Part shown: in pieces, positions 4,038 to 32,000 of the stretch
Layout: every line of letters starts with the position of its first letter
How positions within the stretch are numbered: position 1 is the stretch's first letter
Source of the DNA: an uncultured Chloroflexia bacterium
GTDB taxonomy: Bacteria > Chloroflexota > Anaerolineae > Anaerolineales > Anaerolineaceae
Direction of reading: 5' to 3'
Assembly: GCA_963704755.1 (NCBI GenBank)
Contig: OY969938.1
Span: 1,590,001 to 1,622,000 of the forward strand
DNA length: 32,000 nt
Notes under the pieces: generated by a model
Seen by the model: the letters and a program-made list of their open reading frames with translations, nothing else
The model's database searches: none
What the model was told of the DNA's origin: nothing
Made by a program: the position numbers and the translations under genes

Positions 4038-4808
4038 ATGATTAAAGCAATCCGGATCATACGAGAAGACATCCGCGCTGCCCTGGAGCGAGACCCGGCG
4101 GCCCAGGGCGGATTGGAAATATTTCTGGCCTATGCCGGTCTGCACGCTTTATGGGGCCATCGCCTGGCCCACTGGTTGTGGAACCATAAAATGAAGCTGG
4201 TCGCGCGCAGCCTGGCCCAGGTCACCCGCTTTCTGACCGGCATCGAAATCCACCCGGCTGCTCGAATCGGGCACGGGCTGTTCATCGACCATGGCATGGG
4301 CGTAGTTATCGGCGAAACCGCCGAAATCGGCGACAACGTGACCCTCTACCACGGCGTCACCCTGGGTGGGGTCAGCCTGGAAAAAGGCAAACGCCACCCC
4401 ACCCTGGAAGATAACGTGGTGGTTGGAGCCGGGGCCAAAGTACTGGGGAACATCGTCATCGGCGCCGGCAGCCGCGTGGGTGCGAACGCTGTGGTGGTCA
4501 AATCGGTGCCGCCCAATTCGGTGGTGGTCGGCGTGCCGGGCCAGGTATTGGCGCGCAGCAAACCTGCCCACGAGACGCCCGACCTGGACCACAACCTCAT
4601 GCCGGATGCCATTGGCCAATCGCTGCTTTCGGTGATGGCCCGCATGGACGCCCTTGAAAATCAATTGCACAGCCAATCCCTGGAGAGCGGCGGAAAGAAC
4701 GGGAACGGGAACGGGAATGGGCATAAAGAAGGCAACATTCTGCAACATCCCACCCTGGTCCACTCTCCCGATCACGGGGTGTGGCACGGAGAAGATTTTT
4801 CTATCTAA
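4038..4808 (+). CDS. cysE: serine O-acetyltransferase with extended C-terminal tail
   Basis: 256 aa. N-terminal SAT helix region ([27 protein letters not shown]), hexapeptide repeats ([40 protein letters not shown]) and an (NG)4 linker; ends ..GEDFSI. Confidence 0.9.
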
Positions 4809-4823
4809 GGATCAGTAATAATG

Positions 4824-4883
4824 GCGGGATTCTGGTATCCGGGCAGGGCTTTGCACTACCCGGATACCAGAATCCCGCTTTTT
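4824..4883 (+). terminator. rho-independent terminator after cysE
   Basis: 20-bp perfect stem gcgggattctggtatccggg / cccggataccagaatcccgc followed by TTTTT. Confidence 0.85.
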
Positions 4884-5018
4884 AATATAAAAACCTTTGG
4901 CTACCCCGGGGGTTAAGACAGTTAATAAACGGCTTAATCCTTCATGGTAAAATAACTCCGTTATAGCGAGTAAGTTTGCCCCTGGCGAACCATTCCTTGC
5001 ATTTATAAAATAAAAAGT

Positions 5019-5130
5019 AACTGCTCAGCCTACCTGGGAAGAACCCCAAATTCGAGGCGTTTGCGCGGACGAAGCCCCTACAAACACCTCGAATTTGGGA
5101 CCCTTTAACTGGAGCTTGAGTAATTACAAT
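5019..5130. repeat. dispersed repeat family, full copy with internal 19-bp hairpin (5045..5063 / 5081..5099)
   Basis: Shares aactgc[t/c]cagccta[c/a]ctgggaagaacccc and downstream segments with 16595..16675. Confidence 0.7.
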
Positions 5131-7329: not shown

Positions 7330-8319
7330 ATGTCTAAAATAATTGGAATCGACCTGGGAACCACAAACAGCGTAGTCGCAGTGATGGAAGGTGGCGACCC
7401 GGCCGTTATTACAACAGCAGAAGGTTCACGCCTGTGCCCATCGGTGGTTGCCATTACGAAGAATGGAGAGCGCCTGGTTGGCCAGACGGCAAAACGGCAG
7501 GCGGTCATTAACTCAGAAAACACGGTATATTCAATTAAACGTTTTATGGGCCGCCGGTACGATGAAGTAGAAGCTGAACGCAAAATGGTGCCCTACAATG
7601 TGGTCCGCGGACAGGCCGGGGACGCGCGGGTAAAACTCCCGCAAAATAACCGCGAATACACCCCGCAGGAAATCTCGGCCATGATTCTGTCCAAGCTCAA
7701 AGCGGACGCCGAAGCCTACCTGGGCGAGCCAGTCACCCAGGCCGTCATCACTGTGCCGGCTTACTTCAACGACAGCCAGCGCCAGGCCACCAAAGACGCC
7801 GGCAAAATTGCCGGCCTGGATGTACTGCGAATCATCAACGAGCCGACCGCATCGGCATTAGCCTACGGGCTCGACAAACGCAAGAACGAGAAAATCCTGG
7901 TCTTCGACCTGGGCGGTGGTACGTTCGATGTGTCCGTCCTGGAAGTCGGCGAAGGCGTTTTCGAAGTCAAGTCCACCAGTGGGGATACCCACCTGGGTGG
8001 TGATGATTGGGATCAGCGCGTCGTCAATTGGGCGGCTGATGAATTCAAGAAAGAGCAAGGCATCGACCTGAAGAACGACCGCCAGGCGCTCCAGCGCCTG
8101 CGCGAAGCCGCCGAAAAGGCCAAGATCGAGCTTTCCACCATGATGGAAACCGAGATCAACCTGCCTTACATTACCGCGGACGCCAACGGCCCCAAGCACC
8201 TGCAAGTGCGCCTGAACTCGCTCGCGCTTCGAGCAAATGACCCAAGACCTGGTCGAGCGCTGCCGGGTACCTTTCGAATCGGCGTTGAAAGACGCCGGGC
8301 TGAGCGCCGGGCAAATTGA
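7330..8319 (+). CDS. dnaK: chaperone DnaK (Hsp70), N-terminal fragment; true frame ends near 8215
   Basis: [18 protein letters not shown].., [10 protein letters not shown] and AAGGAG RBS. After ..KHLQVRL the ORF runs into nonsense ([12 protein letters not shown]..). Confidence 0.95.
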
Positions 8320-9226
8320 CGAGGTCGTCCTGGTCGGTGGTTCTTCGCGTATGCCCATGGTGCAAAACCTGGTCCGCCAGTTGACCAACAATAAAGAGCC
8401 GAACAAAAGCGTTAACCCGGATGAAGTTGTGGCGGTCGGCGCCGCGATCCAGGCCGGTGTATTGGGCGGCCAGGTCAAAGATGTCCTGCTCCTGGACGTG
8501 ACCCCGCTCTCCCTGGGCGTGGAAACGATGGGCGGTGTGATGACCCCGGTCATCGAACGCAACACGACCGTACCTGTGCGCCGCTCGCAAATCTTTTCGA
8601 CCGCAGAAGATAACCAGTCGGCTGTAGATATTCACGTCCTGCAAGGCGAACGACCGATGGCCAGCGACAACAACAGCCTGGGCCGCTTCCGCTTGGACGG
8701 TATCCCGGCGTCTCCGCGGGGTATGCCCCAGGTCGAAGTTACCTTCGATATCGACGCCAACGGCATCCTCAACGTGACCGCCAAAGACAAAGCCTCCGGC
8801 AAAGAACAGCACGTGACCATCACGGCTTCAACCAACCTCAACAAATCCGACATCGAGCGCATGGTGGCCGAAGCCAAGCAAAACGAAGCCGACGATCAGC
8901 GCAAACGTGAGCTGGTCGAAGCCCGTAACCTGGCCGACAATACCATCTATCAGGCAGAAAAATCGCTGGCCGAGCTGAACGGCAATGTCCCCGCGGACCT
9001 GCGTGGGCAGATCGAGGCTCGCATCAACGACCTGCGCCAGACGGTGAACGGCAATTCGAGCGATAGCATCCGCCGCCAGACCGAAGACCTGCAGCAGCTC
9101 GCCGGCCGGCTGGCTCAAAGCAGCCAGGCCGCGGGTCAGCAGACATCTCAGGACCACGGCCCGCGCGGCAACGGTGGTGAGACCCCGGAAGGCGAAGTGG
9201 TTGAAGGCGACTTCACTGACGCCTGA
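8237..9226 (+). CDS. dnaK: chaperone DnaK (Hsp70), C-terminal fragment (frame +1 relative to 7330..8319)
   Basis: This frame is open from 8216 and reads [47 protein letters not shown].., the substrate-binding domain and lid. Confidence 0.95.
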
Positions 9227-9271
9227 ACAACAGCGTAACACCAAGCCTGGAGTAATTGTTCCAGGTGGCAA

Positions 9272-9307
9272 AAAAGCCCCGGCCAGCCAGCCGGGGCTTT
9301 TATTTTT
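9272..9307 (+). terminator. rho-independent terminator after dnaK
   Basis: aaaagccccgg-ccagccag-ccggggctttt, then a T-rich run. Confidence 0.8.
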
Positions 9308-9353
9308 CGTTCTTGCCTGTAAAGAAAACCAACAAAACTGTCGATTCGCCATA

Positions 9354-10642
9354 CGTGGTGCCTCAAAATAAAATGTTACTTTGGGATAATCGTTGCCTCA
9401 AATAGAAATGTTACCGGAGAATTCTTAACAATTGATTGACCTTTTTATTGATACTGGCCTGTAAGGACACAGGGTTCAGATGAACATATTGGGCAGTAAG
9501 ACTGGCCTTGACTTTCAGGGGAAGAGAGTCCTGGGCTAAGACCCGGCGATAGGGGGTCTTGGCCAGATCATACTTACGGATCGTCTTGCCGTCAACGGTT
9601 TCTTTAGCAATCAGTTTGAGAACTGGCTGGAAAAAATTGATGTAAAGACGCAAATCGGAGTAAATGGATTTGAGCAAGGCAAGTTCTTGTGGGGTTTCGA
9701 AGCGGTCATAGCCAATGGTATGTCGAACAACCGACCAATTCTTCTGTTCCACATGAGCCTGATCATTCTTGTGGTAAGGCCGCGAACGCGTAAAGGTAAT
9801 GAGTTCGCTCTGGCAGTATCGCAAAAGTGTATCGTTGATGAATTCACTGCCATTGTCTGAATCCAATCCCAAAAGAGGAAAAGGCAGGTTATGGCGCAAT
9901 TCCTCAATGGCTTGAGAGACAGCTGTCTGGGTTTTGTTGGCCAGGCCCAGGCACTCGGTCCAGCCGGTGGCTAAATCGGTTGCAGTGAGGGTATTGAGGT
10001 AGGTACCCTCGGTGGTTGTACCACAATGGGCCACCAGGTCGATTTCCAGAAAGCCTGGCTTCTCGTCCTCCCAAGGGGTAAAGGTGCGGATGGGAATGGC
10101 TTGTTTGAGCAAACTGCCCGGTTTGGTAGTCCCAAGCCCACGTGGGGTGGGGGCGAGGCGTGCCTTTTTCAAACAGCGATCTATGGTGGCCCGGCTCAAG
10201 CTCAACAAAAGCGCTTTGGTTTCCTCGCTCAACTCTATTTCCTGCCAGCGCTCTAAAACATCCACCATTTCAGGAATAAAAGGCTGTAGTCGTTTTGAGC
10301 AGATGCACCCACTAACTTCCCAAATCTTTTCCAGAGCCACGACGACTTCCCCGTTGTATTTCTTCCGTCGCCCGGCTTTCTTCAACCCCTTTGGCTTGGA
10401 ACCATGCTTCAACAGCCGAATAGCGTATTTACGATGATATCCGCTTGTGGCGATAAATTCATCCAGAATCTGTTTCTTCTCGGCTTTCCTGGCTTTCAAA
10501 TAGCGCGGACGAATGCTTTCTAGCATCTCCCGCCGACTGCGTTGACTCATCATGAGCTCCCTCTGCGGTGCTTTATTCCGCGTTAGGGTAACATTTATTT
10601 TGAGCCAACGTTATTTCGCAAAGTAAGATTAATTGTGAGGCA
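9354..10642 (-). mobile_element. insertion sequence (~1.29 kb) with a single rve/DDE transposase; family IS481/ISNCY-like, uncertain
   Basis: Imperfect inverted ends 9359..9415 and 10587..10642, each built from two TGCCTCAAAATAAATGTTAC-like sub-repeats. Flanked by 10-bp direct repeats ATTCGCCATA (9344..9353, 10643..10652). GC is lower than in the flanks. Confidence 0.8.
9411..10553 (-). CDS. DDE (rve integrase-core) transposase
   Basis: 380 aa. N-terminal HTH-like region (ILDEFIATSGYHRKYAIRLL). Catalytic candidates are D in EIDLVAHCG, D in LDSDNGSEFIN and E in HVEQKNWSVVR, about 35 aa later. Confidence 0.85.
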   Translation of the reverse strand: MMSQRSRREMLESIRPRYLKARKAEKKQILDEFIATSGYHRKYAIRLLKHGSKPKGLKKAGRRKKYNGEVVVALEKIWEVSGCICSKRLQPFIPEMVDVLERWQEIELSEETKALLLSLSRATIDRCLKKARLAPTPRGLGTTKPGSLLKQAIPIRTFTPWEDEKPGFLEIDLVAHCGTTTEGTYLNTLTATDLATGWTECLGLANKTQTAVSQAIEELRHNLPFPLLGLDSDNGSEFINDTLLRYCQSELITFTRSRPYHKNDQAHVEQKNWSVVRHTIGYDRFETPQELALLKSIYSDLRLYINFFQPVLKLIAKETVDGKTIRKYDLAKTPYRRVLAQDSLPLKVKASLTAQYVHLNPVSLQASINKKVNQLLRILR

Positions 10643-10652
10643 ATTCGCCATA

Positions 10653-10681
10653 TTGACATAGCCTGGGATGCCATCTATACT
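10653..10681 (+). promoter_or_regulatory. near-consensus sigma70 promoter directly abutting the IS right-hand direct repeat
   Basis: TTGACA (10653..10658), 17-nt spacer, TATACT (10676..10681). Confidence 0.5.
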
Positions 10682-10900
10682 CATTAAAGTTAGACCTTCT
10701 GACAACAAAGATTAAGTTTTAAGCGGGGGCAATCATCAAAATTTCTTATCCATATCCAATCAAATAATAAATCACTCAGACTAACGAGGAAAGATTCCCG
10801 GGTATCGATGCCGCGGGTTTGAACTATGCGTACATCGAACAAGGAATAGAAGCATCTACTTACCAATAAGTACCCAAAAATCATCCAGGGGCAGGTTTCA

Positions 10901-11476
10901 ATGAACACAGATTTTTGGACGTCACCCATGGCATGGGGGGTCATCGTACCGCTGGCTATACTGGCAGATATCTTTCTCATGCGCAAAATTGCAGCCAGGC
11001 GCAGGCAAAATATAAATTCCACCGAGGTGAGCGGGACCGTTTACGTCCTGCACCGGCCTTCAGTACTGCTATCCTGGCTGCGCAAAGCCGGACTGGGGAT
11101 CGTTCATTCTTTGCCCGTCCGATGGATCATGATGCTGGTCCGGGTAACAGGCAAAGCCATTTCCTGGATAATCACAAAATTTTCCATTTTGACCAGGAAA
11201 AGGATTGTTTTACCGGGCCTGATTACCCACAATGAACCTGTTCCGCTGCGGAAGTCACCAGAGACCAGGATAAATCTCACTATGAAAATTCAAACGCTTA
11301 CTTCCTTTCACAGCGCTATTCCATTAAAACTCACCCGACTTATTTCAAAAGACAGTTCGTTGTATATCGAAATTGGGATGATCCTTGCCTGGGCTTTATG
11401 GATCGGGAAAAATTACATTAAACTTCAACCCGAGCATGATCATGACCGGAGGAGATTATCCCCTTCAGGTTTATAA
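10901..11476 (+). CDS. possible N-terminal part of the following membrane protein (frame-disrupted), or partly spurious
   Basis: 191-aa ORF with a TM-like start (MAWGVIVPLAILADIFLMRK) and a TM-like end (GMILAWALWIGK). Overlaps ORF 11385..13178 in another frame. AT-richer region. Confidence 0.35.
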   Translation: MNTDFWTSPMAWGVIVPLAILADIFLMRKIAARRRQNINSTEVSGTVYVLHRPSVLLSWLRKAGLGIVHSLPVRWIMMLVRVTGKAISWIITKFSILTRKRIVLPGLITHNEPVPLRKSPETRINLTMKIQTLTSFHSAIPLKLTRLISKDSSLYIEIGMILAWALWIGKNYIKLQPEHDHDRRRLSPSGL

Positions 11477-13178
11477 CAGTGTCATTTGGGAATGGTTTAG
11501 GAATTGTGGGTCCTGCATTTTTTGGAACGGAGCGCTCAACGGCGGCTTTCCGACTTTTGCCGATATCCAGGGATCACAATTACACCCGCTGGTCATCCTA
11601 ACCACACTCATCTGGGGCGTAATAAACGGATCAAAAATGATCATGCTGGTCGTGCTAATGCTTGCCGGCTTTAGCCAGTGGTGGCTTGCCAAAGAGCTGG
11701 GGTTTGGGCGGCTGACGCGGGGCTTAACCGGGATTCTGGCTGTGGTTGGACCACAAATTGGGCCAAAGGCCCAGGGTGGGCTGTTGAACATCGTTCTTGC
11801 CACAGTTATGGCCAGCTTGATGCTACCGTTGATTGTCAGAATGTTCAAGCGCGGGTCTAATCCAAAAATTGTGGTTTCCCTGGGCGTTTTGTTAGCACTT
11901 TTAATCTTCTCGGGCCAGGGGTATATCCAACTTTCTTTCCTTTTGGGTATTTGTCCGGTTATTTTCTTCTTATTAAACGAGTTGTTCGAACCCTTCAAAT
12001 TAAAGCCTTTGTGGAAAGATTTCGCAAAGGCTGCCCTGCTGGGCGCTCTATTGGTTGGAATTCTAATCTTGCCTTATCTTCATCTCACGTCAGCCGTAGA
12101 TAAAGAAGGAAACCTTGGGCTGGATTATGGATTATCCATCAGTCAAACATTGCACGCCCTGGTCGGTCACGTTGAATTTGACACGGCCTGGCAACTGTAT
12201 ATCGGCTGGATTCCCCTTATTTTGTTCGGAGTGGGACTTTTGTTTTCCCGAAAAGAAGATCGCAAGACGGTTTGGGCACTGGCCATCTCGGCGATATTGA
12301 TTTTATTTTGCTCCACCAATGATTTCCTGAAAATTGCATACCAGGTTGTTCCATCCATCGATCGGGTTCGCTTTCCCGACCTTTTGGCCGGCTTGAGCAT
12401 TCCCTTAATCCTGGCCGTGGTGGGATTTGGAATAGAAAATTTGACTCAATTACACCTTGAAATGCGTAATGTGCTTTCTGCCCGCTGGGTCAACCTGTTT
12501 CCAATCCTGGCAATAATTTTCCTGGGAATTTATGGCTTCAGTGCGATCCGATTAAAACAAGAAAACGCTATGGGAATGTATCTGGTTCGCATCGATGACA
12601 GTGCAGACATCGATTTCCTGTTCGATACACCAGACGTTCAATGGATTTCGGGCCTGGAAGACGACCATAGTTTCGATCTGCGCTTTTTATTGGCTGGTTA
12701 TAATCAAGTCGGGGTTTATCGGCCCTTCTACTGGATGGACCGTACCCAACCCGGTCCTTTCCTAAACCTGTTTTTCGAGGTTCCTCCCGAAACCGAACCT
12801 GTATACAAAACTTACCAAAACCTATGGCTGGTCAAAGACACGCAAAACATTTTCGCCGGAGTTGACGCCAACGCTCAGCAAACCCCCTGCACCGCCGACA
12901 ACACCGGCGGGTGGATCAGCGTCGTTTGCGACACAAACGACCCGGGTGTATTGACGGTCAAAGAGTTCTTCTGGCCGGGCTGGAAATTACGCATCGACGG
13001 CCAACCGGCTACACTCTACCACAACGGCGATTGGCTGGCCGCCATGGCCCAGCCCGGAACCCACACCTACGAATTCCTCTACGACCCCCTGGACGTGAAG
13101 CTCGGTGCGTTGATGACCTTGATCGGCATCATCACCGCGGTGATCTGGCTGCGCAAAAAACCAGAAGTCACTTATTAA
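11385..13178 (+). CDS. large polytopic membrane protein, YfhO-like / GT-C-type putative glycosyltransferase
   Basis: 597 aa from a TTG start, with more than 10 hydrophobic segments. C-terminal FFWPGWKLRIDGQPATLYHNGDWLAAMAQPGTHTYEFLYDP plus a final TM helix resembles the YfhO-family C-terminus. Assignment is by pattern only. Confidence 0.6.
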   Translation: MPGLYGSGKITLNFNPSMIMTGGDYPLQVYNSVIWEWFRNCGSCIFWNGALNGGFPTFADIQGSQLHPLVILTTLIWGVINGSKMIMLVVLMLAGFSQWWLAKELGFGRLTRGLTGILAVVGPQIGPKAQGGLLNIVLATVMASLMLPLIVRMFKRGSNPKIVVSLGVLLALLIFSGQGYIQLSFLLGICPVIFFLLNELFEPFKLKPLWKDFAKAALLGALLVGILILPYLHLTSAVDKEGNLGLDYGLSISQTLHALVGHVEFDTAWQLYIGWIPLILFGVGLLFSRKEDRKTVWALAISAILILFCSTNDFLKIAYQVVPSIDRVRFPDLLAGLSIPLILAVVGFGIENLTQLHLEMRNVLSARWVNLFPILAIIFLGIYGFSAIRLKQENAMGMYLVRIDDSADIDFLFDTPDVQWISGLEDDHSFDLRFLLAGYNQVGVYRPFYWMDRTQPGPFLNLFFEVPPETEPVYKTYQNLWLVKDTQNIFAGVDANAQQTPCTADNTGGWISVVCDTNDPGVLTVKEFFWPGWKLRIDGQPATLYHNGDWLAAMAQPGTHTYEFLYDPLDVKLGALMTLIGIITAVIWLRKKPEVTY

Positions 13179-13184
13179 TGTAAG

Positions 13185-13238
13185 GCGAGCCTAAAAACAC
13201 AGTCCCGGCAATAGCCGGGACTGTGTTTTTAGGCTCGC
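13185..13238. terminator. perfect 25-bp-stem palindrome between convergent genes (putative bidirectional terminator)
   Basis: gcgagcctaaaaacacagtcccggc-aata-gccgggactgtgtttttaggctcgc. Confidence 0.6.
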
Positions 13239-13248
13239 ACTGGCTTGC

Positions 13249-15668: not shown

Positions 15669-15852
15669 AATTCTACTAATCTCCTTTGCGTTAGTCCTCC
15701 GCCCCCTTCTCTCCATATCTGCACCGGCCTCTTGGCCGGCACGCCAGGTATGGTCCAGGAGCGTGCGAGTTAATATTGCCTGTTCCCTCGGAACAGCCGG
15801 TCAAGTATATCATGAGTCTGGAAAAAGCGTCCAGTGCTCAAACAAGCAAATA

Positions 15853-15994
15853 CAGGGCGATTGCAGCCTGCCTGCTTTTCGAGGGCAATTCCCCAAAGAA
15901 TGGGTTTTTGAGTGTTATTGTAGGGCGTAGCCCCACAATGACACTCAAAATTATCTCTCTGTTGGGACTAAATTGGCATGATGCGCTTGCCCTG
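15853..15994 (+). mobile_element. MITE-like structured repeat, copy A (142 bp)
   Basis: Flanked by the 10-bp duplication CAAGCAAATA (15843..15852, 15995..16004). Ends are CAGGGCGATTGC / GCGCTTGCCCTG. Aligns over its full length with 19635..19776 (reverse) and 26418..26560. Confidence 0.85.
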
Positions 15995-16103
15995 CAAGCA
16001 AATATCTGAGGATACTGGCGCGATTAAACCACACAATCACCCTCTCGTTCGCGGTATCTGAGCAGTTAACCCGGGCTAATTAAAAAGAAAAAGCTTTTTG
16101 ATC

Positions 16104-16542: not shown

Positions 16543-16594
16543 GGCCAGCGCCTCCGGTATTCCGTGGAAGAGTACGCTTTCATAAAGAATCTGG

Positions 16595-16675
16595 AACTGC
16601 CCAGCCTAACTGGGAAGAACCCCGCAAACACCTCAAATTCGCGGTCTTTATAATAGAGTACCGAGTAGCTACAAG
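16595..16675. repeat. dispersed repeat family, shorter copy lacking the left hairpin arm
   Basis: aactgcccagcctaactgggaagaacccc + gcaaacacctcaaattcgcgg + ctttataatagagtaccgagtagctac parallels 5019..5130. Confidence 0.65.
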
Positions 16676-19634: not shown

Positions 19635-19776
19635 CAAGGCAATCGCATCATGCCAATTTAGTCCCAACAGAGAGATAATTTTGAGTGTTATTATGGGGTG
19701 TAGCCCCCCAATAACACTCAAAACCCCATTCTTTGGGGGATTGCCCTCGAAAAGCAGGCAGGTTGCAATCGCCCTG
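19635..19776 (-). mobile_element. MITE-like structured repeat, copy B (142 bp, inverted orientation)
   Basis: Flanked by CTTGAACCGG (19625..19634) and CTCGAACCGG (19777..19786). About 13 substitutions versus copy A by hand alignment. Confidence 0.85.
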
Positions 19777-19924
19777 CTCGAACCGGCCGGATCCGTTCCG
19801 AGAGGATGCGAATTGAGGTACACTTATTATCAGATCAGCCCAAGGGGGACATCTTGTGCAAGCCCGAATTGTTGCGCAAGATGTACATTTAGGATGGGAA
19901 TTGTTCATAGAAGGAGAATCGCTA

Positions 19925-20411: not shown

Positions 20412-20804
20412 ATGCTCATTCCCGGAATTATTTCCTCCATTATTTTTTTCGGCTGCCTGTACCTGATTTTTACCGAAAAAATTAACCGGTCTATTGTTGC
20501 CATGGTTGGGGCAGCATTAATGGTTATCGTCGGTCTGGCCTTTCACTTTTACACTGAGGACCAGGCTACTGCCACCATGGACGTCAATACCCTGGGATTA
20601 TTGTTGGGGATGATGATCCTGGTGTCTCTGCTAGAGCCGACCGGTTTTTTTCAGTTCCTGGCCGTTTGGGTAGCCCGCTTTTCAAAAGGCAACCCGGTGC
20701 GTTTGTTAATTCTACCTGGGAGCGGTGACGACGGTTATTTCCATGTTCCTCAACAACGTCACTACCGTAGTTTTGATTGCTCCGGTCACCATCTTGATTT
20801 GTGA
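20412..20804 (+). CDS. ArsB/NhaD-superfamily permease, N-terminal fragment (true frame leaves this ORF near 20715)
   Basis: TM-rich up to ..GNPVRLLIL. The +1 frame 20716..20832 then reads LGAVTTVISMFLNNVTTVVLIAPVTILICEILGINPQVF, a typical motif of this family. Confidence 0.8.
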   Translation: MLIPGIISSIIFFGCLYLIFTEKINRSIVAMVGAALMVIVGLAFHFYTEDQATATMDVNTLGLLLGMMILVSLLEPTGFFQFLAVWVARFSKGNPVRLLILPGSGDDGYFHVPQQRHYRSFDCSGHHLDL

Positions 20805-20834: not shown

Positions 20835-21704
20835 ATGTCCGAGGCGCTGCTTTCGAACACCGGCGGCCTGGCTACCCTGGTTGGCGATCCGCCCAACGTG
20901 TTAATCGCCTCGGCAGCCAACCTCTCCTTCCTGGACTTCCTGACCCACACCCTGCCGGTTGTAGTTGTGGTCTGGTTCGTCGCCCTGGCACTTTTGCGCT
21001 ACCTCTTCCGCAACGACCTGAATAAGGTTCCCGACAATACCGAGGCAATCGAACAATTAAGCCCGGCGGAAGTGTTCGAAGACCGCAAATCGGCCATAAA
21101 AGTCCTGATCGTTATTGTCGCCACCGTCGTTTTTTTCCTGTTGGGTGAAGTGTTGAACCTGCGCCCGGCCACGGTCGCTCTGACCGGCGCCGCCGCGGCC
21201 ATGATTTGGATCAGACCTAACATTCAAGAAACCCTCAAGCGGATCGATTGGGATGTGCTGCTCTTTTTCGCTTCCTTGTTCATTATGGTCGGGGGTATGC
21301 AGCAAGCCGGGGTGATGCACGCCCTGGCCAACCTGATCGGCGCAGCGAAAAACTTGCCGACCATGGTGATCGGTTTGGGTTTGATGTGGGTGGTGGCTTT
21401 CCTCTCGGCCATAATCGACAATGTGCCGATCACGATTGCCCTCATCCCGGTAGTGGCCGACCTGGCTACCACCGGCATCAATCCGCTGCCCTTGTGGTGG
21501 GCCCTGGCTATTGGAGCCGGCCTGGGCGGTAATGGCACCATTATCGGCTCGACTGCCAACGTGATCGTCGCCTCACTTTCCGAGCGCACCCGTAACCCAA
21601 TCACCTCGGTGATCTGGAATAAGAATGGCTTTCCCATCATGCTGGCAACCTGTGCCGCTGCCAGTGTGATGTACATCATTTTGTTCCCACTCATGTCTCA
21701 CTAG
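20835..21704 (+). CDS. ArsB/NhaD-superfamily permease, C-terminal fragment
   Basis: MSEALLSNTGGLATLVGDPPNVLIASA.. and ..SAIIDNVPITIALIPVV.. are conserved repeat motifs of the family. 289 aa, TM-rich. Confidence 0.85.
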   Translation: MSEALLSNTGGLATLVGDPPNVLIASAANLSFLDFLTHTLPVVVVVWFVALALLRYLFRNDLNKVPDNTEAIEQLSPAEVFEDRKSAIKVLIVIVATVVFFLLGEVLNLRPATVALTGAAAAMIWIRPNIQETLKRIDWDVLLFFASLFIMVGGMQQAGVMHALANLIGAAKNLPTMVIGLGLMWVVAFLSAIIDNVPITIALIPVVADLATTGINPLPLWWALAIGAGLGGNGTIIGSTANVIVASLSERTRNPITSVIWNKNGFPIMLATCAAASVMYIILFPLMSH

Positions 21705-22962: not shown

Positions 22963-24270
22963 TTGGGGGGCAGCGACGTCCTCGGCCCGGCTATCTCGGC
23001 CCTGTTCACCTTGCAGGATGAACAATGCCAGTACACGCAGAACGCCTTGATGTGCTTCGACGCCCAGGCTCAGGGAATCGACCGCTACCACCTCTACTCC
23101 CTGGGTGATGCGATGAACATTGCCAATCCTGAAAAGGACGGTGCAGCCATAGAGGGCGGCAGCGAGGGGATTCCCATTTTCGACGAGTTCGACGCGCTGT
23201 ACAACAAGCTAAACGGCCCGCTTTACGTCGGCTTACCCCTGGCCCAGGCTCGCTTCAACCCCAACCGCAGCCGCATTGAACAGTATTTCGAGAACGTGGG
23301 CTTCTACCGCGATATTGATTCTCCACGGGGAGAAGTTCACTTGCTATCCTATGGTGTATACGCCTGTTCGAGCGATTGCCGCTTCCCCGTGCCGGAAAGC
23401 TCGGTCGTCGTCCCCAGCCCGGCTATTCTGCAGCAGCCCTTCCAGGCGCAGGTCGTACGCCTGGGCGGCCCGGATGTGTTCGGCATGCCCCTGACCGAAC
23501 CCTTTACCGCCACTGACGGCAACCTGGAACAGGTTTACGAGAACGCCGTTTTCTACGCCTCAGCCGACGACCCGGCGAACGTCCATTTACGGAATGTCCC
23601 TCTGCTTCTGGGCATGCAGCCAGCAACCTTGATATCGCAACTATATGGTGAAGAACAAGGCATGGTGTTCTACCCCCTGGAGGGAGACAAGGGGCACCAT
23701 GTGCCGGTCGCCCTGGACCGGTTTATCGCCAGCCATGGCGGTATGGAGATCTCCGGCAAACCGATCGGCGAAGTGGAGCAGGATAAGGATGGCCAATACA
23801 ACCAGTGTTTCGAGAATTATTGCCTGACCTTTAGCAACAGCAGCGATGCAGATACCACGATTCACTTGCAGCCCCTCGGACGCGCCTATATGCTGGCCTT
23901 CAAAATTCAATCCACGCCCGGGCTGGCCAGCCAGATCGACCCCACCACGGTTTCCATGGTCGTCCACGCCGCCACGCCGCGCATCCCGGCCAACAAACCC
24001 CAGCAGTTCGAGTTGATCGTCGTCCGCTCCGCCGACCAGCAGCCCGTCCCCAACGTAACCCCCAATTTGATCCTGGCGCTGCCTTCGGGCCAGGAATTGA
24101 GTTACGCCTTCCCGCCCACCGACGGTCAAGGGCGCACTACCCTGACCATTGCCCCCCTACAGCCCGAACCGGCCAACGGCAAGGTCATTTCCTTCAAGGC
24201 CTGCCTGGACAACCCCAACGGCGACCCGGTCTGCGTGTCCGAAAGCTATTTGATCTGGAATTATCAGTAG
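22963..24270 (+). CDS. secreted protein with four LGFP-like repeats and a C-terminal beta-rich domain
   Basis: 435 aa. The recurring module G(G)xxxxGxP(L/I)..(D/N)..xQx(F/Y)EN(A/V/Y).. occurs four times (LGPAIS..QYTQNALMCF, VGLPLA..QYFENVGFY, FGMPLT..QVYENAVFY, SGKPIG..QCFENYCLTF). Confidence 0.65.
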   Translation: MGGSDVLGPAISALFTLQDEQCQYTQNALMCFDAQAQGIDRYHLYSLGDAMNIANPEKDGAAIEGGSEGIPIFDEFDALYNKLNGPLYVGLPLAQARFNPNRSRIEQYFENVGFYRDIDSPRGEVHLLSYGVYACSSDCRFPVPESSVVVPSPAILQQPFQAQVVRLGGPDVFGMPLTEPFTATDGNLEQVYENAVFYASADDPANVHLRNVPLLLGMQPATLISQLYGEEQGMVFYPLEGDKGHHVPVALDRFIASHGGMEISGKPIGEVEQDKDGQYNQCFENYCLTFSNSSDADTTIHLQPLGRAYMLAFKIQSTPGLASQIDPTTVSMVVHAATPRIPANKPQQFELIVVRSADQQPVPNVTPNLILALPSGQELSYAFPPTDGQGRTTLTIAPLQPEPANGKVISFKACLDNPNGDPVCVSESYLIWNYQ

Positions 24271-24322
24271 GGAGAGAGAAGAGAGAATAGAGAGTAGAGA
24301 ATGGTGATAAGGGATTAGTAAC

Positions 24323-24367
24323 AAGTAATAAGTAAGAAGTAATAAGTAAGAAGTAATAAGTAAGAAG
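24323..24367. repeat. 15-bp tandem repeat x3 (aagtaataagtaaga) inside a C-depleted tract
   Basis: Read directly. The surrounding 24271..24390 contains a single C (24322). Confidence 0.85.
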
Positions 24368-24421
24368 GAAGAAAAAGAAGAAGAAAGAAGCGGGAAATAA
24401 ATATTTAGCTGTTCCAAAGAA

Positions 24422-24480
24422 AAAGGGTGTTTATAATGTTTTTGTGTGCGATGCACACAAAAACATTATAAACACCCTTT
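24422..24480 (-). terminator. perfect 28-bp-stem palindrome (3-nt loop); terminator for the minus-strand LysM lipoprotein gene
   Basis: aaagggtgtttataatgtttttgtgtgc-gat-gcacacaaaaacattataaacacccttt. On the minus strand it is followed by TTCTTTGG. Confidence 0.7.
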
Positions 24481-25609: not shown

Positions 25610-25742
25610 TGCCGCATGACTTTCTCAAGAAAAAGGTTGCATCGCGACCCTGGTGCGCAGCATGCCCCTTGGACAAAAAGCAGCCAGGGTTCGCGATGAC
25701 AAAATTCTTGGTTCCTGTCAAGAGAACTTGAGAACGCCATAC

Positions 25743-26141
25743 TCAATGAAGCAGGTCGGTGCGATCCTGCAAATTTCCGGCCAGGTAAGCGGCCAAAGCT
25801 TCCGGGATAAATTCCAACTCGGTAACGATCGGCTGGATGTTGAAAGTCTTCATACTTTCGTAAGCACCCCGGCCCATACCACCGCAGATAAGCACCTGGC
25901 AGTCCGCGATGACCTCGGCCATGCTTTTGTGGACGTCCTGAGAGGCCTGGTCGAACCCATGAGGTTGGCCCATGACGTGCTCGTGGGCTCCGCCATGCGG
26001 GCCGTGCTCATGGCCTGGCTTGGCGCGAATCTCTTGCTGGGCAACTTTGCTATCCTCGACCGTCAGAACCAGGTAATTTTTTGCACGACCAAAATGCCGG
26101 CTGATCGATTCGCCGTCATCCGTAACGATTGCGATTTTCAT
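25743..26141 (-). CDS. NifB/NifX-family (dinitrogenase FeMo-cofactor biosynthesis-like domain) protein with His-rich insert
   Basis: ORF 25743..26237. Preferred start is ATG 26141 (GGAG 6 nt upstream): MKIAIVTDDGESISRHFGRAKNYLVLTV..CQVLICGGMGRGAYESM. Insert is KPGHEHGPHGGAHEHVMGQPHG. Confidence 0.7.
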   Translation of the reverse strand: MKIAIVTDDGESISRHFGRAKNYLVLTVEDSKVAQQEIRAKPGHEHGPHGGAHEHVMGQPHGFDQASQDVHKSMAEVIADCQVLICGGMGRGAYESMKTFNIQPIVTELEFIPEALAAYLAGNLQDRTDLLH

Positions 26142-26417: not shown

Positions 26418-26560
26418 CAGGGCGATTGCAGCTTGCCCGCATTTCGAGGGCAATTCCCCCAAGAATAGGTTTTTTGAGTGTTATGGTGGGGCTACGCCCT
26501 ACCATAACACTCAAAATTATCTCTCTATTGGGACTAAATTGGCATGATGCGATTGCCCTA
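26418..26560 (+). mobile_element. MITE-like structured repeat, copy C (143 bp)
   Basis: Flanked by the 10-bp duplication TACTCCTTCG (26408..26417, 26561..26570). Aligns over its full length with copies A and B. Confidence 0.85.
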
Positions 26561-26644
26561 TACTCCTTCGTTTATGGACTTGACAAGAACAACAATTAGA
26601 ACGACAATAGAATAAATTTTCTATACACAGAGTAGATATGCGCC

Positions 26645-29257: not shown

Positions 29258-29331
29258 GCCCTCGTAGCTCAATTGGACAGAGCGTTTGCTTGCGGAGCAA
29301 AAGGTTACAGATTCGAGTTCTGTCGGGGGCA
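29258..29331 (+). tRNA. tRNA-Arg, anticodon GCG
   Basis: Hand-folded cloverleaf: acceptor GCCCTCG/CGGGGGC, D arm GCTC-AATTGGACA-GAGC, anticodon arm TTTGC-TTGCGGA-GCAAA, variable loop AGGTT, T arm ACAGA-TTCGAGT-TCTGT, discriminator A. A20, C35 and G36 fit Arg identity. No encoded CCA. Confidence 0.88.
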
Positions 29332-29332
29332 C

Positions 29333-29478
29333 TAGTAAGCTATCAATTGGCAGAGAATAGTTCGAGTTCAGCCTCCCTTGAGGGGGTTTTTGTTATCGGG
29401 GGCACTAGTAAATCATCAATTGGCAGGAAATAGTTCGAGTTCAGCCCCCCTTGAGGGGGTTTTTGCTATCGGGGGCAC
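29333..29478 (+). repeat. two tandem 73-bp tRNA-derived units, each ending in the tRNA 3' acceptor sequence TCGGGGGCAC
   Basis: Units are 29333..29405 and 29406..29478. Each carries D-arm-like and T-arm-like stretches plus a C-rich/G-rich hairpin with a T5 run. Confidence 0.85.
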
Positions 29479-29762
29479 TGAGGAAAACGGCAAATCTAGC
29501 GGTTTGGTCGTTTTTTGTTGCCTATGTTTGGGGGTAAGGGATAGAAGAGACGGGTTATGCTGCCCCAAAAAGGGATTGCTGTTGCAGATTTCTATTAATT
29601 GCGTTTTCAGTATTGTGGTAAGAAGATTTTGTTAAATAATCTCTTTACCGAGAGCAAATGATGACCGAATGAGTATAATAAATATTGGGGGGAAAATAAG
29701 AAAACCCTCCGAAAATCCTATAAAAATATCGCTGTTTCGAAATTCTGTGCAATTTGATTAAA

Positions 29763-30446
29763 ATGCATTCTCATCGCTCCCAACAGACTCATTCGTCCAC
29801 GATTAGAAGAGAAGCAGAATGGAAATTAATATCCATCAATCTGTTTTGCATATTCACGCTTCTCCTCACAGACTGCACGATCAAGCCAGCCGCTCAACTT
29901 GCCGCAACAGAACTACCACCATCACCCAGCCCTTCTATTTCAATGCCCATACCGGTTGAGACAAACACTGTTTTCCAAAGACAGTCCCCCACCCTTACCC
30001 CCAATCCGTTGGCGACGAACGATTTTGAATATCACCCAACCGAATACTACCAAGGGCTGCCGGTGATACCTGATCAGCCACTTCTGGTATCTCCTACGGA
30101 TGTTCAACCGCCTTTATTTCCGCAGTCCGATTATGCTTTACATGCTCCCTCCGAGCAAGAACTCAACCGACAAATCTACATGCAGCTTGCCGATGATCGG
30201 AACGATTATCGTTACTTCGAATTCACCTTATTCAAATTTTCGCCAATCGCTTCGACAGGAATTTCTGTTGCGTTTTCAAGATTCGAACAACCTGGACAAA
30301 ATGCGCTGGAGCTACGTGCTGCAAGACCCTCTGGATCCGATCTCCAGCCCAGGATTGAGCACACAGGACGTTTTTGCTTCTTTGTTGGAAGAGGAACTGG
30401 AAACCGGTCAAACCACTATCGATACACTCGCTGCCTGGCTTTATGA
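29763..30446 (+). CDS. N-terminal (signal/anchor + Pro-rich) part of a large secreted protein; probably continuous with the next ORF via a frame disruption
   Basis: ORF 29754..30446 (TTG) with ATG 29763. Hydrophobic segment LISINLFCIFTLLLTDC, then a Pro/Ser/Thr-rich stretch. The tail after about 30240-30300 looks non-protein-like. AT-rich region. Confidence 0.5.
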   Translation: MHSHRSQQTHSSTIRREAEWKLISINLFCIFTLLLTDCTIKPAAQLAATELPPSPSPSISMPIPVETNTVFQRQSPTLTPNPLATNDFEYHPTEYYQGLPVIPDQPLLVSPTDVQPPLFPQSDYALHAPSEQELNRQIYMQLADDRNDYRYFEFTLFKFSPIASTGISVAFSRFEQPGQNALELRAARPSGSDLQPRIEHTGRFCFFVGRGTGNRSNHYRYTRCLAL

Positions 30447-32000
30447 TCGTGGATTCAAAGCGGTAGTATTTGCACCCGTTCAGAATCTGCTTGGGAAGGA
30501 AAAAAACGGGTATGTCTTACAGGTTATGATTGATGCAAATTCGATAGATAATTTCTATCTGTCAAGATTTTATACAGCGGTTTATGCACTCTATCAGGAT
30601 ACAGATAAAAAATTTCATTTGGCCAAAGTTTCCCCGTGGGCATTGCAATATCACAATTGGATAGATATTATCTCGGTTGATGACGTCAATTCCGATGATA
30701 AAGCCGACATTGCCATCAAATCTGAGGGTTTCCCTGGCGGAGGTGACGCTGGCGCGTGTTTCTCGCACGTAGACATCTATAGCTGGAACGATCAGGCGGT
30801 TGGCTTCGTGAACCTTGGGGATGATATTCCTATATTTTATGGCTATCAAGATAACTGTACCAACAACTGGCAATTCGGAAAAGTTGACGAAAATGGCAGC
30901 CAACCGCTCATCGTCACTTCACAGTTTTATTTCGAAAAGAGTGGCTCGCAAGAAGTTGAATGCCCACCGTATCAATTGCAGACTACATATTTTTGGGCCG
31001 GTGAACGTTTTACGAAAGGCGAAGTTAATACATTAGCACTCAATGAGGATACCGACCCGTCCTGTAAAATCGCCTGGGCAGTTAACGGAAATTATCAAAA
31101 CGACCAGGCGCTAGATATTTTGAAATCCGCATTGGAAGATCCCCAAAATGAGCAAGATATTATTGATGCGCTCGGCCCCAACGGGATCGATTATATTCGC
31201 TTCTTATTAGCGATTTGGCTAGATCAGCGCAATGAAGATGCGCAAGCTGACATCTTCCTTCAGGAAATTCCTGAACCGGATCCTACTACAACCGCCATGG
31301 ACTTGCTTCAATTAGCCCAAATTTATCGAGAGGCAAGAAACCATAAAGGAAAGTTAACTGCCTGCCTAAACGTTGATCAAAAATTAGCCCAGGCAGCCTT
31401 GGATATAGAGGGAGATAAATACCTGGCATTATTGCATGCCTTACAGGGGATGCTGGCGCTAAAGGATATCCTGGGATTGGTTCCGGCAGTCTGGGCACAG
31501 AGCTGGTCTTTCAGTATTTGCGATCCGGTACCTACTCTAGAAGCCGAACTGGCAAAAGTAAATCCAATGACAACTGGCGAAATGTCCGCCTGGCTGGTTC
31601 GAAATGATATTCCACCTCAACGAATACAGCAAAGCGATTTGGACGGCGATGGCCGGCAGGATTGGTTGGTGGTCATTCCTGCCCTTCAAAACATCGATCC
31701 AGTATGGTCCATTTATGAAATTTGGGGCTTCCTTCAACAAGACTCAGGGTTGAAGCCTGTTTTCATTGGAAGGGATGATTTAACACCTTCCACATCGATG
31801 CAATGGGAATCGATCACAACGCCGGGGTTACTCCAACCCCAAAACATTCTCCTGGTGGACAACCGACTTTTTATACTCCAGATCAATAACCCTGTTAATC
31901 CGGCAACCGTCGAGAGTTTTCTTCCGAGATACCAGGGATTTCTGTATGATGTCAGTGCTTTTTCCATCTCATCAGATAATGTGAATCCGGAAATACAAGT
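30301..32000 (+). CDS. large secreted protein with FG-GAP/VCBS-like DxDxDG loops; 3' end beyond the window
   Basis: I checked the frame codon by codon: it is open from 30067 to the window end. It is absent from the ORF track because it has no stop. Contains DVNSDDKADIAI and DLDGDGRQDWLVV. The ATG at 30301 may be internal. Confidence 0.7.
   Translation, partial: MRWSYVLQDPLDPISSPGLSTQDVFASLLEEELETGQTTIDTLAAWLYDRGFKAVVFAPVQNLLGKEKNGYVLQVMIDANSIDNFYLSRFYTAVYALYQDTDKKFHLAKVSPWALQYHNWIDIISVDDVNSDDKADIAIKSEGFPGGGDAGACFSHVDIYSWNDQAVGFVNLGDDIPIFYGYQDNCTNNWQFGKVDENGSQPLIVTSQFYFEKSGSQEVECPPYQLQTTYFWAGERFTKGEVNTLALNEDTDPSCKIAWAVNGNYQNDQALDILKSALEDPQNEQDIIDALGPNGIDYIRFLLAIWLDQRNEDAQADIFLQEIPEPDPTTTAMDLLQLAQIYREARNHKGKLTACLNVDQKLAQAALDIEGDKYLALLHALQGMLALKDILGLVPAVWAQSWSFSICDPVPTLEAELAKVNPMTTGEMSAWLVRNDIPPQRIQQSDLDGDGRQDWLVVIPALQNIDPVWSIYEIWGFLQQDSGLKPVFIGRDDLTPSTSMQWESITTPGLLQPQNILLVDNRLFILQINNPVNPATVESFLPRYQGFLYDVSAFSISSDNVNPEIQ

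Follow-up and report, generated by a model that had tools for sequence, protein, structure and literature searches.

A MITE family is present in the chromosome of an Anaerolineaceae bacterium. The element is non-coding and 142 bp long, has 12-nt terminal inverted repeats (TIRs) and 10-bp target-site duplications (TSDs), and occurs in at least five copies. An IS of the ISAs1 family is probably its source, or at any rate what mobilises it.

Copies of the Element and Their Target-Site Duplications

The window, the 32,000-nt stretch of DNA that was analysed, is chromosomal and carries dnaK, an inserted block, pyrH-tsf-rpsB, surE, CBS-domain genes, a gene for a CAP/LysM protein, xseA and tRNA-Arg. 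The RpsB of the host is 76%–81% identical to that of Bellilinea and other Anaerolineaceae MAGs, which identifies the host as an Anaerolineaceae bacterium (Chloroflexota) with Bellilinea as its nearest relative. Three copies of the MITE lie in the window.

15853..15994, plus strand: MITE copy A, 142 bp, covariance model score 164.9 bits
15843..15852 (left) and 15995..16004 (right): TSDs of copy A, CAAGCAAATA/CAAGCAAATA, perfect
19635..19776, minus strand: MITE copy B, 142 bp, covariance model score 158.1 bits
19625..19634 and 19777..19786: TSDs of copy B, CTTGAACCGG and CTCGAACCGG on the plus strand, 9/10
26418..26560, plus strand: MITE copy C, 143 bp, covariance model score 157.8 bits
26408..26417 (left) and 26561..26570 (right): TSDs of copy C, TACTCCTTCG/TACTCCTTCG, perfect

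These are the positions and strands given in the initial annotation, and the end-to-end alignment reported there was reproduced. The copies align over their full length with a pairwise identity of 88%–91%. Copies A and B differ by 13 substitutions, A and C by 16 substitutions and one indel (both counts matching the earlier ones exactly) and B and C by 17 substitutions and one indel. Copy C carries an extra T within a T-run, and its final base is A, not G. With differences of 9%–12% between copies, transposition may be ancient and the element perhaps now immobile.

A 10-bp duplication adjoins all three copies, as had been claimed, and its sequence is different at each; two are perfect, and that of copy B, which reads CCGGTTCGAG/CCGGTTCAAG on the element strand, matches at 9 of 10 positions. 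The chance of a perfect 10-mer at a fixed offset is ∼1e-6 per copy. When the flanks of the three copies were compared, no similarity was detected beyond the 10-mers. Since the flanks are unrelated outside them, the 10-mers are TSDs and not the edges of larger duplications, a possibility raised earlier as an objection to mobility. A reconstructed empty site would read, for example, ...GCTCAAACAAGCAAATATCTGAGG....

The ends of the MITE are CAGGGCGATTGCA and CAGGGCAATCGCAT. The TIR, CAGGGCGATTGC ... GCGATTGCCCTG, spans 12 nt, 10 of which match as a DNA inverted repeat; CAGGGCGATTGC and the reverse-complemented right end, CAGGGCAATCGC, agree at 10/12 positions in all three copies, which bears out the description of the ends as imperfect inverted repeats. 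Six-frame translation yields only 47-codon open frames without start codons, so that the element, at 142–143 bp and with no transposase-coding ORF, is indeed too short to encode a transposase.

Copy A is intergenic, between the divergent rpsB (minus strand) and surE (plus strand). Copy B follows the stop codon of the CAP/LysM gene by 29 nt and precedes a CBS-domain gene by 80 nt, antisense to both. Copy C separates a Nitro_FeMo-Co-domain gene (minus strand) from a divergent LuxR-type gene (plus strand). The orientation of the copies relative to the flanking genes is thus mixed, with no consistent pattern. Relatives show synteny with the window only at the level of genes, the intergenic DNA being too diverged to align, and no further members were found in the 90% clusters of the SurE and LuxR proteins.

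Bacterial MITEs are typically intergenic, 100–250 bp long, flanked by TIRs and TSDs, strongly structured by prediction and present in many copies, and they break short-read assemblies (PMC10969869, PMC2779907, PMC3542288). The element has these features in common with the Correia/NEMIS elements of Neisseria, ERIC, RUP, the MaeMITEs of Microcystis and the MITEs of Anabaena sp. 90. Its sequence is, however, unrelated to any of them, and its TSD is 10 bp, whereas Correia and RUP elements make TA duplications.

Copies Elsewhere in the Genome

Because two reading frames are open throughout the element, the concatenated translated frames could be searched against 5.8 billion predicted proteins. Two matches were obtained, P0001 and P0002, both from the same 4,871,623-bp contig as the window. 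P0001 is a spurious ORF spanning a complete MITE copy. P0002 has its called start inside a MITE copy adjoining a gene for a RAYT-like Y1 transposase (NF047646, E 3.8e-19); the true N terminus of this RAYT-like protein may be disrupted or replaced. An exhaustive phmmer search with the 47-aa frame, covering 1.84 billion representatives, returned P0001 as the sole real match, and the matches to an adhesin repeat (P0009) and a translated tandem repeat (P0010) were judged to be coincidental. The copy number is therefore at least five, three in the window and two elsewhere, the latter detected by an ORF route that picks up none of the three window copies.

An independent short-read assembly (Logan) of run ERR11571143 has contigs that match the window at 100% identity. 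Contig L011 of this assembly begins at 26530 and so contains exactly the last 31 nt of copy C; such a break is expected where a repeat interrupts the k = 31 assembly graph. The additional copies and the break inside copy C show that the element is multi-copy beyond the window; of the high genomic copy number expected earlier, at least five copies are shown.

Other collections gave no further members. A 20-mer of the element had no exact match in 185,579 species-representative genomes, a word from it had none in IMG/VR, and an 18-mer gave nine matches in JGI metagenomes, all by chance and only 18–20 nt long. No match was obtained by blastn of the element against the plasmids of PLSDB, and there was no internal similarity to any plasmid IS. 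In 1.33 Mb of DNA around rpsB, mostly from Anaerolineaceae, no copies were detected with blastn and nhmmer; a covariance model run over 83 of these loci (1.30 Mb) likewise recovered no copy and picked out nothing but generic hairpins, in two contigs (L073 and L093), and no TIR pairs with a TSD were present in the relatives' loci. By these searches, the MITE family is known so far from one Anaerolineaceae genome only.

Termini and Duplication Length Link the MITE to the ISAs1 Family

Plasmid-borne ISAs1-family elements were fetched by tblastn and their ends were extracted, the right ends being given as reverse complements.

ISAs1: left end CAGGGCGGGATCGCACTTTG (begins CAGGGCGGGATCGCA), right end CAGGGCGGGAGCACACTTTG, TSD 10 bp
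ISPa60: left end CAGGGCAATCGCATGAACG (begins CAGGGCAATCGCAT), right end CAAGGCAATCGCATGAAGC, TSD 10 bp
ISRm21: left end CAGGGGAATCGCATTT, right end CAGGGCTATCGCATAT (short-form ends CAGGGGAATCGCAT / CAGGGCTATCGCAT), TSD none detected
ISAs1-family copy of Rhodococcus: left end CAGGGTCCCGGAAAGG, right end CAGGGCCCCGGAAAGG, TSD 10 bp

Read inward, the right end of the MITE (CAGGGCAATCGCATCA) matches the left end of ISPa60 (CAGGGCAATCGCATGA) at 14 of 14 positions. The left end of the MITE is CAGGGCGATTGCAGCC, and the terminal sequence common to the MITE and ISPa60 is CAGGGC.ATCGCAT. YhhI of Escherichia coli K-12 scores 412 bits on the NCBIfam ISAs1 model, and its element has the ends CAGGGAAAGAT... 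and ...ATCTTGCCCTG (CAGGGAAAGAT / CAGGGCAAGAT when both are given inward). The termini of the MITE and its 10-bp TSD thus match those of the ISAs1 family, as represented by ISPa60, ISRm21, ISAs1, ISKpn31 and the E. coli H-repeat/ISEc1, the 10-bp length being measured in three family members. ISfinder lists this family with CAGGG ends and 8- to 10-bp duplications. The end sequence together with the length of the duplication places the element with ISAs1-type transposition. In other respects the MITE differs from these ISs: they are 1.2–1.3 kb long and carry a transposase gene, whereas the MITE is 142 bp long and carries none, there is no detectable internal similarity, and the host of the MITE belongs to the Chloroflexota.

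An origin from an IS4-family subgroup (the IS4Sa, ISH8 or IS231 group) would be compatible with the 10-bp TSD and the CA start, as these groups make 8- to 12-bp duplications and have ends beginning with CA (ISfinder family table). Such an origin is unlikely, because the termini match ISAs1-family ends over 12–14 nt, well beyond the CA, and no IS4-type element is found within the window.

The autonomous partner that the initial annotation had proposed to look for, with CAGGGC.. termini and 10-bp TSDs, was not found in the window or in the relatives' loci. Neither the window nor 1.3 Mb of DNA from relatives encodes an ISAs1-family transposase (NF033564), and a homologue search seeded with YhhI gave only enterobacterial proteins among the matches listed. 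Literature searches turned up no specific reports on the end sequences of ISAs1 or on MITEs derived from it.

The 3′ 45 nt of the MITE were also considered as a remnant of the C terminus of a transposase. Frame 0 of this segment reads ...NTQNYLSVGTKLA (...NYLSVGTKLA), with the stop codon 13 nt from the end; the spacing from stop to end measured in ISAs1-family ISs is 5–28 nt, and the peptide faintly resembles the C-terminal motif of ISAs1 transposases. No protein in the set of 5.8 billion shares three 5-residue words with this peptide. The remnant is thus unsupported, and nothing points to a recent parent sharing this 3′ coding end.

The Central Hairpin and the Question of an RNA Function

Each copy contains a central hairpin of 45 nt.

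15906..15950, plus strand: central hairpin of copy A
19679-19723: central hairpin of copy B
26472-26516: central hairpin of copy C

An interior hairpin of 16 positions had been described; the hairpin is present, and its stem has 21 positions and a loop of 3 nt. In copy A this hairpin runs in the opposite orientation to that in B and C. Compared directly, it shows 8 mismatches with each of the two, and only 3 or 5 after reverse complementation, whereas the hairpins of B and C are closer to each other directly (6 mismatches) than flipped (9). A comparison of repeats likewise gave an inverted match that is 93% complementary (I4) and a direct match of 82% (D2). The loops cgtag (copy A) and ctacg (copy C) are reverse complements, and the claim that the loop differs in every copy is explained by the inversion of the hairpin in copy A. 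GLRPTITLK is encoded by a minus frame in copy A and in the P0001 and P0002 copies and by a plus frame in copy C, and copy B has GLHPIITLK in the plus frame. These peptide frames put the P0001 and P0002 copies in the orientation of copy A, so that both hairpin orientations occur among the five copies.

The sequence around the hairpin is asymmetric and non-palindromic. Only 1 of 31 columns varies in its right arm, which is thus nearly invariant, compared with 9 of 41 in the left arm. The right arm of all three copies contains, on the antisense strand, a promoter-like match (ATGCCA-18-GATAAT, 9/12), which may be a weak outward promoter. It points toward the co-oriented gene in 3/3 cases, two of these sites being divergent, where either orientation would fit.

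Read as RNA, the element strand pairs at all 12 positions of the terminal helix, with two G-U pairs, as claimed. The predicted fold energies of the three copies are −64.6, −66.4 and −71.8 kcal/mol on the element strand and −58.8, −53.0 and −59.0 kcal/mol on the opposite strand, a difference of 6–13 kcal/mol in favor of the element strand; the z-scores of the copies against shuffled controls are −7.6 to −9.1. Three hairpin wobbles are valid on the element strand (copy A position 11, copy B position 15 and copy C position 17) and two only on the other strand (copy A position 17 and copy B position 21), the A-C at position 17 of copy A being the G-T of copy C seen after inversion. As hairpin wobbles occur on both strands, the pairing valid in only one orientation, which had been attributed to both helices, is limited to the terminal helix.

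On the strength of such features a possible RNA-level role had been put forward. The element would then be mainly a functional structured RNA, cis-regulatory or small, that happens to be mobile and whose helices are under selection at the RNA level. The better fold of the element strand, with both strands far below the shuffles, is in line with this reading, as are the two terminal G-U pairs, which become A-C mismatches on the other strand, the near invariance of the right arm, and one compensatory change in the hairpin. This change, T-A in copies A and B to G-C in copy C at hairpin position 14, was present as described, and it is the sole compensatory pair. For the three copies, RNAalifold predicts 53 pairs, of which one has a double compensatory change and 8 are broken in one copy, and its covariation term of +1.01 kcal/mol gives no net support, in a test that has almost no power with three sequences. 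All copies share the same two terminal G-U pairs, which thus represent a single inherited state and an ordinary difference between left and right ends, of the kind also present in the reference ISs. The inversion of the hairpin, seen in copy A and, judged by their peptide frames, in the P0001 and P0002 copies, shows that its complementarity is kept up at the level of DNA; through it the G-U of copy C becomes an A-C mismatch on the element strand. Recombination or template switching between the arms would spread mutations without selection at the RNA level.

The proposed search of Rfam produced nothing relevant: no family of Rfam 15 matched at gathering thresholds, and at E ≤ 10 only miRNA-hairpin matches far below threshold were seen. 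A covariance model of the three copies (R1), another check suggested earlier, recovers those copies (158–165 bits) and otherwise generic long hairpins on both strands, and no copies in the 1.30 Mb of relatives' loci. The hairpins at 4824-4878 and 24422-24480, considered as related elements and rejected, look like ordinary terminators. The mixed orientation relative to flanking genes, with copy B antisense to both neighbors, also argues against an RNA function. An RNA role is therefore unsupported, and the reading of the element as mainly a functional RNA is, like the IS4 assignment, unlikely to be correct. Both helices, central and terminal, are palindromes at the level of the DNA, as is typical of MITEs.

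The inverted hairpin and the conserved right arm are the sole unusual details of this MITE. They might be signs that the hairpin takes part in a functional step, for example as a cruciform or single-strand intermediate during mobilisation, or that an RNA or promoter module under selection is delivered to genes, in which case the element would be more than a passive MITE and a mechanistically distinct ISAs1-related element in the Chloroflexota; we regard this as a rather slim possibility.

The long intergenic palindrome and the copy adjoining a RAYT-like gene are points of likeness to REP/REPIN elements, which are moved by RAYT (Y1) transposases, and P0002 does start in a MITE copy and run into a RAYT-like protein. 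It is very improbable that the element belongs to this class: Y1 transposases generate no TSDs and need no TIRs, and REPINs have neither, whereas 3/3 copies have both; the arms around the hairpin are not palindromic, and the adjacency to the RAYT gene is explained by another intergenic or 5′-proximal insertion. Local segmental duplication or gene conversion of an immobile intergenic module, to which the location of the three window copies within 11 kb would be suited, is scarcely credible given that the 10-bp duplications and the flanks are unrelated from copy to copy, one copy is inverted, and further copies lie elsewhere in the genome.

The Neighboring IS and Other Features of the Window

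One IS is present in the window.

9354-10640, 1287 bp: IS with a transposase ORF at 9411-10553, minus strand, rve domain, ISNCY/IS481-like

Its transposase is ∼45% identical to "ISNCY family" transposases on plasmids, and the 90% cluster of the protein contains three members from the host genome. A second copy, 98.3% identical, at 9878-11173 of an unrelated ENA contig (L093) defines the ends of the IS as CGTGGTGCC...GGCAATTCGCC (start CGTGGTGCCTCA...), and a TGCCTCAAAAT.AAATGTTAC-like motif occurs twice at each end. The IS had been credited with a 10-bp duplication like that of the MITE. The window copy is flanked by ATA and the L093 copy by CCC, so that the TSD is 3 bp long; the apparent 10-mer ATTCGCCATA consists of 7 nt of the right end of the IS followed by the 3-bp TSD, the same heptamer occurring by chance in the left flank. 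The ends of the MITE are indeed unrelated to those of this IS, as stated before. This IS, the only one in the window, was considered as the mobiliser of the MITE and rejected on account of its different ends and 3-bp TSD.

The IS and two ORFs (10901-11476 and 11385-13178) make up a segment of ∼4 kb at 9227-13248 that is inserted between dnaK and pyrH, which are adjacent (∼200 bp apart) in Bellilinea and other Anaerolineaceae. No Pfam or NCBIfam matches were obtained for the two ORFs, and the GC content of the 10001-12000 segment, within the block, is 47.7%. The dnaK gene is itself split into overlapping ORFs in different frames (7330-8319 and 8237-9226) although relatives have it in one frame; a gene for a CitMHS transporter is also split (20412-20804 and 20835-21704). 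These split genes are either pseudogenes or the result of indel errors in the long-read assembly.

A second intergenic repeat, GTAACTGC.CAGCC...GGGAAGAACCCC...AAATTCGAG, occurs at 5008-5127, 16584-16650, 2414-2462 and 2922-2954, and its copy at 5017-5127 is an inverted-repeat element of ∼111 bp. Logan contig L010 begins inside the copy at 16592, and the P0001 ORF crosses a copy beside its MITE. This repeat may be another MITE-like family. A third short repeat lies at 25660-25776, and its translation, ACPLDKKQPGFAMTKFLV, recurs directly beside the MITE copy of P0001.

Two tandem units of 73 nt, 90% identical, follow tRNA-Arg(GCG) in the region 29258-29480. Each unit starts with a copy of the 3′ end of the tRNA, TCGGGGGCA, contains a T-arm-like GTTCGAGTTC and ends with a terminator-like hairpin. 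A third TCGGGGGCA follows the tandem units, and the GC content falls to 45.5% in 30001-32000. The units could be scars of integration at a tRNA gene. Long perfect or near-perfect hairpins with 25- to 28-bp arms and 3- to 4-nt loops occur at gene ends (2513-2571, 4824-4878, 13185-13238 and 24422-24480); the one at 24422-24480, between convergent genes, and the one at 4824-4878, which follows the gene at 4038-4808, resemble intrinsic terminators whose stem is very long. A purine-rich 14-nt tandem repeat (GTAAGAAGTAATAA-like) occupies 24279-24373, directly downstream of the gene at 22963-24270.

Proposed Mobilisation and Implications

For a MITE mobilised by an ISAs1-family IS, we infer the identity of the transposase, and whether it still exists, from the termini and the TSD length. 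An ISAs1-type DDE transposase would be encoded elsewhere in the genome, or would formerly have been present, and would bind both CAGGGC(G/A)AT(T/C)GCA termini. It would cut the target with a 10-bp stagger and insert the 142-bp element there, and gap repair would generate the 10-bp duplications. Any effects on neighboring genes would be incidental, for example through read-through transcripts containing a long stem of the RNase III type or through the weak antisense promoter-like sequence.

The MITE accounts for breaks in short-read assemblies and for spurious ORFs, namely P0001 and the false N terminus of P0002, and it can serve as a marker for strain typing. A new mechanistic question would arise only if the inversion of the hairpin proves to be functional. 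The finding is of modest importance: it adds a previously undescribed MITE family to the Anaerolineaceae, a poorly studied and mostly uncultured group, ties this family to a single IS family, ISAs1, through the sequence of its ends and the length of its duplications, and reveals that the upstream regions of three genes, those of rpsB, a CBS-domain gene and a LuxR-type regulator, have been remodelled by its insertion.
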